Below are positions 34,780 through 39,907 of a DNA stretch of 64,000 nucleotides, piece after piece. Every line of letters begins with the position of its first letter. Position 1 is the stretch's first letter. Source of the stretch: a virus (Duplodnaviria > Heunggongvirae > Uroviricota > Caudoviricetes); the IMG/VR virus record IMGVR_UViG_2908567220_000002, positions 1 through 64,000 of that record; one strand, given 5' to 3'. The notes under the pieces are model-generated. The model ran no database searches and was not told the DNA's origin. It saw only the letters and a program-made list of their open reading frames with translations. The position numbers were made by a program, and so were the translations under genes.

Positions 34780-35829
34780 TTACCCGAGCACGCCGGTTGC
34801 AAAGGCGTGATCAAGAAAACGAAAAATTAAATCAACCTGAGAACCATGCTTTTCTTCGAACGCCAGCGGATCCGCATGAAGTTCGTTGTGATGCTCCCGG
34901 CACAGCGGTAGCGTGAAAATATCGTGAGCTTTTGTCCCCATTCCGCCCTGAGCATGACCAATCAGGTGATGGGGATCATCAGCTGGCTTACCACAGCACG
35001 AACACGGCTGTGTCTTTACCCAGCGTGTGTATTTCTCATTGACCCAACGGCGACGTTTAGGTCGTTTCATGAAAGATTCTGGAGACTCCGGATCAACAGT
35101 GATGCTGACCACCGTCTTTTTGTGAGGCGGGTTTTGTTGCTGGTAGGCGTGGCGCAGCGGCACAATATTTTTTGTGCGCTGCTTCAGTATGCTGGTGGCG
35201 CTCTGCTCTCCCGGTACGATGTCACTTTCGCGATACACCGAGTGGATTTTTTCCGCACGTAACCCCAGAGAACGACGTAATACTGCTTCCGGTAGCGCGT
35301 CCGCCACCTGATTGCAGACCGCCCACCAGGATAATTCAGCCAAAGATAATTCACGCTCCTGCGTACCGCTTATTGCGTGACCGATGACGTCAATCATCCA
35401 TGCTGACAGGTTTTGATGAGCAAGTTGCTCGAGTGATTCGGATGTCTGGTCACGCAGCTGGTTGTCGCAGTGCCAGCACAACACCATTGCGCCGGTACCA
35501 TAACGGTGAATGACGGTTTCGCTGTGATGATAATCGCCGTGTGGCCACTGGCAGGATTTAATATGGCGCAACAGCCAGTCAGACAATGCACCAGCACCAC
35601 CAGCAGCACGAATCACCCGTGCGTTACTGAAAAACGGCAGCAATGTTTTGTCTTCCACCAGCGGCTGGCGAGCGGCGGGAACAACCCCGGACGGCAGATT
35701 ACGCATGCTTTTCGGTTCCGGCTCCACCAGTACCCGGGTATTGTGGAATACCGGCATGGATTCACGGCCCGGCTTAACGATCACCAGCCCGAGTTCCGGT
35801 ACCAGAACAGGTCGAAGTAATACCCGCAC
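34780..35829 (-). CDS. ydfU: DUF968-family protein (YdfU-like) with C-terminal HNH-like Cys/His motifs
   Basis: 349 aa; C-terminal CSCCGKPADDPHHL...CREHHNELH; same position as ydfU in Qin as recalled. Confidence 0.65.
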   Translation of the reverse strand: MRVLLRPVLVPELGLVIVKPGRESMPVFHNTRVLVEPEPKSMRNLPSGVVPAARQPLVEDKTLLPFFSNARVIRAAGGAGALSDWLLRHIKSCQWPHGDYHHSETVIHRYGTGAMVLCWHCDNQLRDQTSESLEQLAHQNLSAWMIDVIGHAISGTQERELSLAELSWWAVCNQVADALPEAVLRRSLGLRAEKIHSVYRESDIVPGEQSATSILKQRTKNIVPLRHAYQQQNPPHKKTVVSITVDPESPESFMKRPKRRRWVNEKYTRWVKTQPCSCCGKPADDPHHLIGHAQGGMGTKAHDIFTLPLCREHHNELHADPLAFEEKHGSQVDLIFRFLDHAFATGVLG

Positions 35830-35830
35830 G

Positions 35831-36103
35831 TTACCTCCAGATGCGTTGCTGGAATGTGCGGGACGGACGCGGTGGGCGTTCGGAGTAAGGAAGCCTGACG
35901 GAGATTATCCAGTGACGATAATCGAGGCTGAGGGCTTTCTTAATCTCGTATCCGTGTCTGCGGTAGCACTGAATTAGCCACTCGACCTGTTCTTCAGTAC
36001 ATGGTGGGTGTTGGTACCAGTCGGTTTTAAATGCGTGTGAACGCCGCCCATGCCGGATGGCAAGGTCGGTATCAGAATTGTGAAATTTGGTTTTGTGCGC
36101 CAT
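35831..36103 (-). CDS. Hypothetical phage protein
   Basis: 90-aa ORF between the hok locus and the ydfU-like gene. Confidence 0.4.
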   Translation of the reverse strand: MAHKTKFHNSDTDLAIRHGRRSHAFKTDWYQHPPCTEEQVEWLIQCYRRHGYEIKKALSLDYRHWIISVRLPYSERPPRPSRTFQQRIWR

Positions 36104-36270
36104 CTGTTTTCTCTGCTGGCGCAGCAGGTGTCAGGTGTTCAGGCTGACGTGCGAATTGTAAACCAGAATGCCAGGAAAAAACAAAACCCGCCGAAGCGGG
36201 TTAAGTGCGGGTGCGTTGAGGATGCCTGACTCATCAGAGGTGGCGAGGGATTTCTCCCTCGCCTGGTCTC

Positions 36271-36426
36271 TTACTCCTCAGGTTCGTAAGCTGTGAAGAC
36301 AGCGACCTCCGTCTGGCCGGTTCGGATTCGTACCTCGCAGAGGTCTTTCCTCGTTACCAGTGCCGTCATTATGACGGTTAAACAGATGACGATCAGGGCG
36401 ATTAACATCGCCTTTTGCTGCTTCAT
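36271..36426 (-). CDS. hokD: Hok-family type I toxin (HokD/RelF-like)
   Basis: MKQQKAMLIALIVICLTVIMTALVTRKDLCEVRIRTGQTEVAVFTAYEPEE, near-identical to HokD as recalled; the longer in-frame ORF to 36483 may be the mok-like frame. Confidence 0.8.
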   Translation of the reverse strand: MKQQKAMLIALIVICLTVIMTALVTRKDLCEVRIRTGQTEVAVFTAYEPEE

Positions 36427-36836
36427 AGCCTGCTTCTCCTTGCCTTTCGGCACGTAAGAGGCTAACCTAGATTTGCCGTTCATAGATTGAGCCTCAGATT
36501 AATGTATAAGCGTCTTGCAGGACGCATAATGTTAACTGGGGCTTTTCTCTATCTGCCTTTGGTGTTCATGCTTGAGGCAGATAGCCTCAAGCACCCGCAG
36601 CAATTTTACTTAACTCCCCTTTTCCCACAAATCGTTTTTATCCCTACTGGTAATGTTCTCCCGATGTGGGATTCCCACATTGGAACGAATTCAATCAGTT
36701 AAAGACTCATCAGAATCTCACCTTTCTAAGTGCCCACAGGTGAGGCATTGCAATAAAAATAGCAAACGTGTATAAAAGGAGGTAATGCATGTTTTTCCAG
36801 TCTTATCAATCCATTACTGAGAGTTAAGGGGGCGCC

Positions 36837-37631
36837 GTGGATCGGTGCGGTAATTATTTACTTAAAGATGGTCGCAGTTTAGGACAAGGGAGTTTTGGCG
36901 AAGTATTTAAGGTTGATGTCTATAACTTAACCCAGACCCACATGACCACATATGCTCGCAAATACTTTTCACCTTGCCCGGACTTTGACAAGACCGCTAT
37001 AAAAGAGTTGACTGATTTAAGACAGCGTTTTTTAGTTGAGATCAAAACACAATGCACTCTCAATAGAATAAACTATGATTCAATAGCGCCAATAGTTTTA
37101 TTTAATACAAATGGTGATAAACCTTATTTTGTTATGGAATTGGCAGAGTGTAACTTATATGAAGCCATCCGCAATGGTATGAATTACGCGGAGAGGAAGT
37201 CTGCTGTTACTCAGATTTTAAAAGGAATTATCACCATACATGAAAACAACTATATACATCGTGATTTAAAACCAGGAAACATACTTTATTATGCCGATGG
37301 AAAGTATAAAATATCTGATTTTGGTCTAGTAAAAGACAGAGATACCTTACGGGCCGAAATCAAAACAAAATTTAAGCCTAATCACATGGGCACAGATGGA
37401 TATCGAGCGCCCGAAATACATGATAGCGGTCTTTTTTCTTTTCAAAGCGACATATTTGCAGCAGGTAAAATTATCACTGATATATATCCCACAGAAAGAA
37501 GTGAAAAATTAAAAAGATTGATTGCAAAATGTTGCGCACATTGGCCTGAAGAACGATATCAAAGCACACGGGAGTTACTGGAAGATTTTTTAAAAGTGAC
37601 GGGGGAGGTAAATCATGAAGAACATAATTGA
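36837..37631 (+). CDS. Hanks-type (eukaryotic-like) serine/threonine protein kinase, kinase domain only
   Basis: GTG start with RBS TAAGGGGG; glycine loop GQGSFGEV, lysine YARK, catalytic loop HRDLKPGN, DFG, APE; AT-rich versus flanks. Confidence 0.85.
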   Translation: MDRCGNYLLKDGRSLGQGSFGEVFKVDVYNLTQTHMTTYARKYFSPCPDFDKTAIKELTDLRQRFLVEIKTQCTLNRINYDSIAPIVLFNTNGDKPYFVMELAECNLYEAIRNGMNYAERKSAVTQILKGIITIHENNYIHRDLKPGNILYYADGKYKISDFGLVKDRDTLRAEIKTKFKPNHMGTDGYRAPEIHDSGLFSFQSDIFAAGKIITDIYPTERSEKLKRLIAKCCAHWPEERYQSTRELLEDFLKVTGEVNHEEHN

Positions 37632-38331
37632 AATGGCATGTTTTAGCCTAAAACAACCCCAAAAAAAAGAAAATGAAGACTTTTATTTACCGCCATCTTT
37701 TGATAGCGATTTTAACATTGTCTTTGCAGTAGCTGATGGGGTTGGTTCCTCTGAACATTCAATGCTTGCATCTCATGCAGCCATTCGTGGCATTAGACAC
37801 ACGCTAGGCACTTCCTTTTTCTCAATTGAAAGTGCATTTCATTCAGCTAAAAAAGAAATTGACAATTTAGATATTAGCACTGCCACAACCTTAACAATTG
37901 TTCAGATCAAAAAAAATGAAGTGTTAATTGGTCATTCCGGTGATTGCCGAGTATACTTCAATAAAAACAACAAACTAAATCAGTTAACCACTGATCAAAC
38001 GAGATATCAAGAACTCCTTGATTCTGGTGAACATAAATTACGTAATTTAAGAAATCATAAAGAACGGCTATCTTCAGTCCTAACGAATGCTTTATCAAAT
38101 ACAACGGATTTGAATTTTGAGTTAATGTCTTTTCCGATTAGCCAGCTAATTTATAATGGCTATCTTCAACTCTATGCAATGACTGATGGTGCCTATAAGC
38201 ATTGGGATGTCAGACCAAGGTTTTCTGAGAAGACAATGCTCTCACCAACAGCTTTTGCGAGTAGTTTAAGAAAAAGGATTGAGAAAAACATAATGGATGA
38301 TTACACTTTTATAGGCGTAAAAGTAACCTAA
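37615..38331 (+). CDS. PP2C-family serine/threonine phosphatase
   Basis: ATG with RBS GGGGGAGG; overlaps the kinase gene by 17 nt; motifs FAVADGVGS, GHSGDCR, TDG. Confidence 0.75.
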   Translation: MKNIIEMACFSLKQPQKKENEDFYLPPSFDSDFNIVFAVADGVGSSEHSMLASHAAIRGIRHTLGTSFFSIESAFHSAKKEIDNLDISTATTLTIVQIKKNEVLIGHSGDCRVYFNKNNKLNQLTTDQTRYQELLDSGEHKLRNLRNHKERLSSVLTNALSNTTDLNFELMSFPISQLIYNGYLQLYAMTDGAYKHWDVRPRFSEKTMLSPTAFASSLRKRIEKNIMDDYTFIGVKVT

Positions 38332-38485
38332 TTTTAGATATCCAAGATATTTACTCTAATTTAACCATAGTATTCCCAACCTCTTTTTATTGGGGGTTGG
38401 GTTCATTAAAGTCACCATTTTCTATTTCTTTCCCGTTAGAGGATATATTATTTCCAGATAAAGAAAGCAACTTCTTATGCAACTT

Positions 38486-38590
38486 CATATCACGCCATGC
38501 TTCCACCGCGGTAACTCTACATAGTCCATTAACAGTTCATGCCATTCTTCAAAACTGGCGTTATATTTAGTTGAAGCAAAATCAGCCATT
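38486..38590 (-). CDS. Tiny hypothetical ORF (34 aa), coupled to the upstream acidic ORF
   Basis: MADFASTKYNASFEEWHELLMDYVELPRWKHGVI; RBS GAGGAAG; start 1 nt after the stop of the 38592-38765 ORF; below the six-frame track threshold. Confidence 0.3.
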
Positions 38591-38591
38591 T

Positions 38592-38765
38592 TATTCTTCC
38601 TCTTCGTCTTTTATTTCGTGATATGAGTAATTGCAGTAGTTAAAGAAAATATCTTTTGCTTCGTCATGTATTTCATCAGGCGTCGCATCATCATCCACTT
38701 CGAATTCATCCTCGAAATCTCCACCGGCTATTCCCGTTTCAATAATTATTTTGAACTTTCGCATT
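38592..38765 (-). CDS. Small highly acidic protein (57 aa)
   Basis: MRKFKIIIETGIAGGDFEDEFEVDDDATPDEIHDEAKDIFFNYCNYSYHEIKDEEE; below the six-frame track threshold. Confidence 0.3.
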
Positions 38766-38853
38766 TAACTACCGCCCTGCCGGACAGCCTCCTGATGTTC
38801 TGAGGGCGCCCCCCTCCGGTTAAGGATTAAATTTTTAACAGTGCTAAATTTAA

Positions 38854-39210
38854 TTATTCAGTTCTTGATTTTGTCGCCCTGCGTATCCGCGCTTTCGCGT
38901 TACGCTCAATCTGAATTAGCTTTTCTATATTTTTCCGCCTTTCCTGTTCCTCCTGGAGCAATAACCTTACATCATCTGCCAGTCTGGTTTCTCTTTTCGC
39001 CACAGAGAGCATCCAGTCAAATGGCTCCACAACTGCACCGCAGATTTTACAGCGGACCTGACGCTCTTTTTCGTCAACCCGGACAGAGGCGTGATGGCAA
39101 TATGGTCTTTCCGATGGCTCATAAAGAAAATTAACCTGATTACGAGGGTCATCCTCTTTTGCCGGAAATAAAACGATATTGCTTAACTCATCTTCTGGTT
39201 TTATTTCCAT
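38854..39210 (-). CDS. Hypothetical protein with zinc-ribbon-like Cys motif
   Basis: ORF 38854-39291; probable start MEIKPEDE; CHH...CKICG. Confidence 0.45.
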   Translation of the reverse strand: MEIKPEDELSNIVLFPAKEDDPRNQVNFLYEPSERPYCHHASVRVDEKERQVRCKICGAVVEPFDWMLSVAKRETRLADDVRLLLQEEQERRKNIEKLIQIERNAKARIRRATKSRTE

Positions 39211-39907
39211 GCTCCTCTCCTTTGATGCGAATGCCAGCGGCGCGTGGCACATTAACTTCCACGATGCGCACAGTTGGTTTGTACATCTCAATCGCTGTCA
39301 GCCAGTCAGCTCCTGTCATGCGTTTTTCCGCATCGCCATTAGTCCACTGAACCGGCACACCAATAGCCTTCATCGCGATTTCTATTTCCCCGGCAATGGC
39401 GCTTTTTCCGCAACCAGTAAAACCAGATACAACGACAAGAACTTCGCCTTTGGCTGGTTTTATTTCCCGTGCTTCCAGTTCTGCTATGCGCTTACTTCCA
39501 TCCGCGATTACTCCCTCGTAATACTCACGCTGCTCGTTGAGTTTTGATTTTGCTGCTTCAAGCTCAACGCGCAGCTTCCCTACCGTTAGCGCAATCTCCT
39601 CGTTCTCCTGGTCGCGGCGTTTTATGTATTGCTGGTTTCTTTCCCGTTCATCCAGCAGTGCCAGTACGGTAGCCGGGTTAGCCTCTGCTATAAATGCTGC
39701 GTTTGCATAAGCCTGAGCATCTGTTTCAACCAGGCAGTTAGCATGACATTCTGCAATCACGCCACCGGGTTCTCCTTTCCATTTTTGACAAACAAAAACT
39801 CCTGTTAAATTGCCGTACTGGTTAACAGATGTATGCCCTACGATGTAGCTTCCTTTAGTTGCTTTTTCTGCCTTGGCACGCAGTACCTGATAGTCAATCT
39901 TGCTCAC
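39188..39907 (-). CDS. ead/Ea22-like protein
   Basis: 239 aa; N-terminal MSKIDYQVLRAKAEKATKG and central coiled-coil segment, as in lambdoid Ea22-like proteins. Confidence 0.55.
   Translation of the reverse strand: MSKIDYQVLRAKAEKATKGSYIVGHTSVNQYGNLTGVFVCQKWKGEPGGVIAECHANCLVETDAQAYANAAFIAEANPATVLALLDERERNQQYIKRRDQENEEIALTVGKLRVELEAAKSKLNEQREYYEGVIADGSKRIAELEAREIKPAKGEVLVVVSGFTGCGKSAIAGEIEIAMKAIGVPVQWTNGDAEKRMTGADWLTAIEMYKPTVRIVEVNVPRAAGIRIKGEEHGNKTRR

Follow-up and report, generated by a model that had tools for sequence, protein, structure and literature searches.

What are two very small open reading frames (ORFs) doing next to a kinase/phosphatase pair in an Escherichia coli prophage? They lie side by side in a 64,000-nucleotide (nt) stretch of viral DNA (IMG/VR record IMGVR_UViG_2908567220_000002, positions 1 to 64,000; hereafter, the window), which is a Qin/Rac-like lambdoid prophage of E. 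coli with its rightward early operon on the minus strand. An original prediction had taken them for a coupled pair and had proposed that they could be anti-defence cargo or an accessory of the kinase module. We found that the first, ORF1, is an intact, full-length member of the phage small-protein family DUF7167 (PHROG 1997). The second, ORF2, is dead: it is what is left of the 5' part of a three-helix gene of 58 amino acids (aa) from PHROG 519, frameshifted, truncated and broken on the arrival of the kinase/PP2C cassette. The two ORFs are laid out as follows.

38591-38764, minus strand: ORF1, with its ATG at 38764 and its TAA at 38591-38593, 57 aa (MRKFKIIIETGIAGGDFEDEFEVDDDATPDEIHDEAKDIFFNYCNYSYHEIKDEEEE), DUF7167 / phrog_1997
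38485-38589, minus strand: ORF2, with its ATG at 38589 and its TGA at 38485-38487, 34 aa (MADFASTKYNASFEEWHELLMDYVELPRWKHGVI), phrog_519 remnant

Both ORFs exist on the minus strand, but the positions first given for them (38486-38765) are shifted by one base. The predicted TAA-A-ATG coupling and GAGGAAG site were both found in the window sequence; the junction between the ORFs reads GAA-TAA-A-ATG, and the GAGGAAG box lies 6 nt 5' of the ORF2 ATG. Since the PP2C gene is on the plus strand and ends at 38331, 153 nt from ORF2, the small ORFs and the kinase/PP2C set are convergent, again as predicted.

ORF1 is an intact DUF7167 protein under purifying selection

ORF1 matched Pfam DUF7167 (PF23768) at 55.3 bits (E 7.1e-15; residues 2-53 on profile positions 1-60), for which the curated gathering cut-off is 24.4 bits, and phrog_1997 from end to end (E 7.5e-31; residues 1-57 of 57). 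Every property of the family that could be tested was present: a whole-domain score above the cut-off, the length of the 50-60 aa class of stand-alone proteins, and the motif E-V-[ED]-D-D-A-T...I...A together with the aromatic [YW]-x-[WYF]. The pattern that ORF1 has in common with the family is M-[RK]-x-h-[KR]-V-x-h-E-T-G...E-V-[ED]-D-D-A-T-x-E-E-I-E-E-x-A-[KR]-[ED]...[YW]-G-[WYF]-x-E followed by an acidic tail. The sole difference from the commonest E. coli allele is a C-terminus that is 3 residues shorter (CAA->TAA).

ORF1 is not a new feature, being already catalogued in RefSeq, Pfam and PHROGs. The RefSeq protein WP_001224661.1, labelled 'DUF7167 family protein', is identical to it and is annotated in E. 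coli genomes that match the window locus at 98-99% identity. Literature searches with DUF7167, PF23768, phrog_1997, WP_001224661 or a peptide string found no paper, and a search around the gene names of the Rac record found nothing relevant.

The exact ORF1 sequence, in its 57-aa form, is present on at least 1000 contigs. When 1.84 billion cluster representatives (clusters at 50% identity) were searched with the family profile, 234 DUF7167 clusters were recovered at E<=1e-3, nearly all of them stand-alone proteins of 50-60 aa. The family occurs in temperate and virulent phages of both Gram-negative and Gram-positive bacteria. Members occur in E. coli lambdoid and Stx phages, Klebsiella temperate and Guernseyvirinae phages, and the E. 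coli phages phAPEC8 and phiWec190; others are found in P22-like prophages, Enterococcus Herelleviridae, Lactococcus 949 and one Streptomyces phage. Some members depart from the stand-alone form, as tandem duplications (129 and 105 aa), as YopX-domain fusions, or by joining DUF7167 to a zinc-ribbon N-terminus together with a long tail that is acidic and rich in proline. The domain fusions were uninformative on function, both for YopX and for a DUF7446 fusion that is probably a read-through call.

Compared with two moderately diverged E. coli phage alleles, ORF1 gave a ratio of non-synonymous to synonymous substitution rates (dN/dS) of 0.06-0.10, derived from 8-9 synonymous vs. 3-5 non-synonymous substitutions. 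This low ratio indicates that ORF1 is a real protein-coding gene under purifying selection. Its reading frame is widely conserved, and for ORF1 the condition that would have counted against the original prediction, a frame not conserved in related prophages, does not hold. The gene has decayed in one phage, Escherichia phage PhiR42_1, whose allele stops in frame after residue 36, leaving an annotated coding sequence of 36 aa.

ORF2 is the remnant of a 58-aa gene cut by the cassette

In related phages, ORF1 is 60 aa long (...DEEEEQNG) and overlaps a 58-aa gene (MADFGSTKYNVSFEEWHELLMDYAELRGGSAADAEAWRDDYEAGKTPVEAYCDEWGDE) by 8 nt (ATGGCTGA). The 58-aa gene matched no Pfam family. It matched PHROG 519 (E 4.5e-23) at profile positions 76-137, and, as that profile has 143 positions, longer relatives or fusions exist. 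In Enterobacter prophages the three-helix product is itself acidic (net charge -12). We compared the forms of the pair in 80 IMG/VR loci in which ORF1 is identical over 57 residues. The 60-aa ORF1 was present in 74, and in 69 of these 74 the full 58-aa partner came next; the 57-aa ORF1 with an intact partner was seen in two loci and the 57+34 form of the window in three.

Relative to the common arrangement, a C->T change in the window makes a TAA stop of CAA, and ORF1 ends without its last three codons (QNG). Alignment placed two further changes, a 1-nt (+1) insertion and a 17-nt deletion, within ORF2, and similarity to the common arrangement stops at about 38483-38500. Only residues 1-26 of ORF2 are in the conserved frame, and these matched PHROG 519 positions 76-101 (E 4.4e-06); the last 8 residues derive from the frameshift and the junction. 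The frame is broken within the 58-residue conserved stretch, and ORF2 lacks almost every conserved C-terminal position of the 58-aa gene. In the model of the 58-aa protein (predicted local distance difference test score, pLDDT, 78), helices span residues 13-26, 35-42 and 47-55; judged against this model, ORF2 keeps helix 1 alone, helices 2 and 3 being gone. We also considered ORF2 as a new functional 34-aa micropeptide and regard this as very unlikely, given its frameshift- and junction-derived tail and the loss of two of three helices.

The other elements involved in this history are listed here.

38483-38500, no strand: recombination junction inside ORF2, where similarity to the common kinase-less arrangement ends
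36644-38499, plus strand: kinase/PP2C cassette, with a Ser/Thr kinase at 36837-37631 and a PP2C phosphatase at 37615-38331

The early operon runs in the order cro-like, ydaT, replication genes, DUF977, methyltransferase, Ead/Ea22, zinc-ribbon ORF and DUF7167, followed, beyond the cassette, by hokD/sok, DUF968, RusA and Q. A BLAST search of 35800-39400 against all fetched loci showed that 36644-38499 is found only in kinase-bearing loci. In loci without the cassette, the same two flanks are 0.8-0.95 kb apart; between them, all pointing the same way, are the remainder of the 58-aa gene, a gene of 104 aa and a membrane ORF of 72 aa. The replaced stretch spans the 58-aa gene to hok/sok. We conclude from this distribution and spacing that the cassette is an opposite-strand replacement that cut ORF2.

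The cassette is the rarer partner in this arrangement. It was absent from 75 of the 80 IMG/VR loci, and of 5426 complete E. coli genomes 33 carried the kinase form, vs. 1909 that carried the intact small-gene pair (1750 at >=80% coverage). The kinase matched the PADLOC models PD-T4-6, mad6 and Stk2 (E 1e-38 to 1e-25), which makes the cassette plausibly an anti-phage module. The locus illustrates that such putative defence cassettes (kinase + PP2C) are exchanged into the accessory regions of lambdoid prophages, and that neighbouring small genes pay the price. As a sequence feature, the window's instance of the pair is ordinary: ORF1 was already annotated, and ORF2 is debris of a cassette exchange.

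The cassette lies antisense within the early operon, so early transcripts can get to hokD, RusA and the Q antiterminator only by running through it in antisense. Such antisense transcription could switch the module off in lytic growth.

DUF7167 and the 58-aa gene are independent accessory genes

The neighbours of DUF7167 differ from lineage to lineage. In Klebsiella phages they are PHROG 926, PHROG 1150 or a 454-aa exonuclease (PHROG 69), and in the Klebsiella Guernseyvirinae phages DUF7167 directly adjoins the exonuclease gene. In Enterococcus Herelleviridae phages it adjoins a 180-aa gene annotated 'exonuclease', whose PHROG matches are an RNA-binding protein or families of unknown function, none of them an exonuclease. 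P22-like prophages carry DUF7167 between Dam and a homologue of pol III theta (HOT), downstream of ERF and SSB. In one metagenomic phage contig DUF7167 closes the replication module and has a late-gene sigma-like activator as a neighbour; in other phage and metagenomic contigs it sits amid arrays of small unknown ORFs. The setting was always a co-directional array of early, replication or recombination accessory genes, in temperate and virulent phages alike. We looked across lineages for a conserved partner as a guilt-by-association clue to function, and none recurred; the exonuclease adjacency is seen in two lineages and is not general.

The 58-aa gene is found without DUF7167 in Enterobacter prophages, where it directly follows Ead/Ea22-like genes. 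Because DUF7167 and the 58-aa gene occur independently, the two small genes are not a system; they are independent, shuffled accessory genes of early operons. An obligate coupled or toxin-antitoxin-like pair was ruled out, as the two do not consistently co-occur. Of the predicted coupling, then, the TAA-A-ATG junction is real, but the pair it joins is not intact, ORF2 leaving the conserved frame after residue 26, and elsewhere the genes go separate ways.

A conserved hairpin separates ORF1 from its AGGAG box

38788-38793 and 38771-38788, minus strand: AGGAG(G) Shine-Dalgarno-like box and 7-bp hairpin, respectively, upstream of ORF1

The region 5' of ORF1 has the order AGGAG(G) box, 7-bp hairpin, AGUUAA, AUG. 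The linear distance from the AGGAG box to the AUG is 24 nt, which would shrink to about 6 nt if the hairpin were folded. In 55 of 85 loci, the 45 nt 5' of the AUG are identical, with the hairpin GCCGCCC-GAAA-GGGCGGU, and most of the remaining upstream variants keep the same hairpin. The 50-nt consensus context folds at -16.7 kcal/mol (z = -3.2). Across the 85 loci, C->U changes in the hairpin are confined to the 5' arm, where G.U pairing is kept on the ORF1 strand; in the window the loop is GGCA and all 7 pairs are kept, two of them as G.U.

Together, the AGGAG box and the hairpin may form a hairpin-bridged ribosome-binding site. Such sites are known from T4 genes 38 and 25, which, by analogy, ORF1 resembles in having a strong AGGAG that is too distant and a stable hairpin in between. 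Alternatively, the hairpin could be an RNA-stability or processing element. In ArgO145-type phages, a module boundary lies just upstream of the AGGAG box. A scan for promoters and terminators found no more sites than in shuffled sequence, and an Rfam scan matched the neighbouring sok but nothing within the ORF region. No promoter or terminator particular to ORF1 stands above background. Induction or infection is expected to switch ORF1 on along with the rest of the early operon.

ORF1 carries a conserved acidic patch

The 57-aa product is as acidic as the original prediction had described it, with 20 D+E vs. 5 K+R, a net charge of -15 and an isoelectric point (pI) of 4.07; the median net charge of the DUF7167 family is -11. 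In a confident AlphaFold2 model built on a 70-sequence alignment (mean pLDDT 86.8), residues 2-8 and 17-23 form a beta-hairpin and residues 29-43 a helix; an extended aromatic segment at 44-51 is followed by the acidic tail. Conservation was assessed column by column across the family. The acidic fraction was 100% at position 22, 96% at 24, 99% at 25 and 91% at 26, and further along it was 73-89% at 29-31, 74-77% at 33-34 and 90% at 38. Positions 2, 3, 5 and 37 are conserved as basic, and positions 46 and 48 as aromatic. The acidic tail is variable and the acidic patch conserved. In the model, the acidic positions appear to sit on an exposed side of the helix.

What might ORF1 do?

We propose that induction or infection would start transcription of ORF1 from the early promoter, and that its mRNA would be translated from the AGGAG box, which the conserved hairpin would bring near the AUG. 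Its product, predicted to fold as a compact beta-hairpin and helix domain, would use the acidic patch (E22, D24-D26, D30, E31, D34 and D38) and the acidic tail to bind a basic, probably nucleic-acid-binding, surface. That surface would belong to a protein of the host or of a rival phage, would be blocked by the binding, and ORF1 would thereby act as an early host-takeover or anti-defence inhibitor. The net charge, the position-by-position conservation of the acidic residues, the early accessory context and the conserved hairpin all point this way, and we put the binding and blocking role forward tentatively, as the likeliest of the roles considered. The account that joins the identity of ORF1 and the history of ORF2 to such a role is, taken as a whole, our best explanation of the locus, and we consider it probable.

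Very small acidic phage inhibitors are known. T7 gp5.9, an inhibitor of RecBCD, has 52 aa, and phi29 p56, an inhibitor of uracil-DNA glycosylase, has 56 aa; their example puts nucleic-acid mimicry within reach of a domain of about 55 aa. ORF1 may be compared with them in size class, acidity and expected early expression. We treat this likeness as a lead only, since no homology was found and neither protein was among the fold-search matches listed for ORF1. With somewhat more reserve still, we entertain the broader idea that DUF7167 as a whole might be a very widespread family of acidic phage inhibitors of about 55 aa, in which the E-V-E-D-D-A-T-x-E-E patch would mimic nucleic acid or an acidic peptide and so block a universally conserved DNA- or RNA-binding protein of the host, for instance a defence nuclease or a repair or recombination enzyme. 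DUF7167 would then be a new anti-defence or host-takeover family. Found in phages of distant hosts and in roughly one in three complete E. coli genomes, it is a well-defined and cheap candidate for anti-defence or host-takeover screening.

A different reading, unlikely but the first to be reckoned with, is that ORF1 works within the DNA metabolism of the phage itself and not against host defence, perhaps as an acidic adaptor for, or regulator of, an exonuclease, SSB or a replication protein. The neighbours described above offer a hint of it, chiefly the adjoining exonuclease in Klebsiella Guernseyvirinae phages (and, by annotation only, in Enterococcus Herelleviridae phages), the Dam and pol III theta flanks downstream of ERF and SSB in P22-like prophages, and the contig in which DUF7167 closes the replication module. 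However, those neighbours vary by lineage with no single recurring partner, the Enterococcus 'exonuclease' matches no exonuclease PHROG, and neither the window nor most E. coli prophages have an adjoining exonuclease or SSB gene.

The DNA-mimic reading, in which ORF1 would block type I restriction-modification enzymes in the manner of Ocr or ArdA, was drawn from amino acid composition, and we now regard it as improbable. The charge density is indeed very high (-15 over 57 aa, pI 4.07). The gene also lies in an early-operon accessory region of the kind that holds anti-defence genes, near an orphan S-adenosylmethionine-dependent methyltransferase, and relatives have Dam-type methyltransferases. 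Like Ocr (T7 gp0.3) and ArdA, ORF1 is strongly acidic (pI about 4), is expected to be expressed early and is encoded by a mobile element. Ocr is an elongated helical dimer and ArdA a three-domain structure, whereas ORF1 is much smaller, is modelled as a beta-hairpin and helix, and has acidic positions that are individually conserved. We assign this reading its low probability because all tests of homology and fold were negative. Pfam gave no match between ORF1 and the Ocr or ArdA families at E<=1; searches of PDB chain sequences with ORF1 and with the 70-sequence profile returned nothing below E 0.1 and nothing relevant; NCBIfam and PADLOC had no match for ORF1 or ORF2; and among the fold-search matches listed for the ORF1 model there was none to Ocr, ArdA, another solved DNA mimic or any characterised protein, inhibitors included.

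It is more improbable again that the ORFs are non-functional, ORF1 as a decaying relic and ORF2 as junk (or, conversely, as a new 34-aa micropeptide). Signs of decay do exist: the surrounding prophage shows it, with frameshifts annotated in genes upstream of the locus in the closest genome, ORF1 has lost 3 C-terminal codons, and in another phage the PhiR42_1 allele has an internal stop. Yet ORF1 is intact across the whole Pfam and PHROG profiles, is under purifying selection and is shared in its 57-aa form by at least 1000 contigs; ORF2 as a peptide would be left with the 8 frameshift- and junction-derived residues at its end and without two of its three helices.

Least credible of all is a role for both ORFs as an accessory of the convergent kinase/PP2C module, be it as regulator, substrate or antidote, and we discard this suggestion of the original prediction. 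Adjacency and convergent orientation are shared by the window and 33 complete E. coli genomes. Genomes that have the pair but no cassette are about 50 times as numerous (about 1750-1909 of 5426), and the same holds for 75 of 80 IMG/VR loci; homology to kinase-less loci stops inside the frameshifted, truncated ORF2 that the cassette's arrival destroyed, and the small genes are part of the opposite-strand early operon.

Other observations around the locus

Immediately to the left of the cassette, at 36271-36596 on the minus strand, are the hokD toxin ORF and the sok antisense RNA (Rfam RF01794, 110 bits). The left junction of the cassette (36643/36644) lies about 50 nt past the upstream end of the sok match.

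In NZ_CP180600.1, the closest complete genome, the zinc-ribbon ORF and Ead/Ea22 upstream of DUF7167 are annotated as frameshifted pseudogenes. The same two genes are open in the window, as ORFs at 38854-39291 and 39188-39907 that overlap by 104 nt. This suggests ongoing decay or rearrangement of the region.

The record PP818812.1 (Actinobacillus pleuropneumoniae phage vB_Apl-pPE4) matched the E. coli prophage segment at 91% nucleotide identity. Such a match is unexpected for a Pasteurellaceae host, and the record may deserve a check of its host assignment or its purity.
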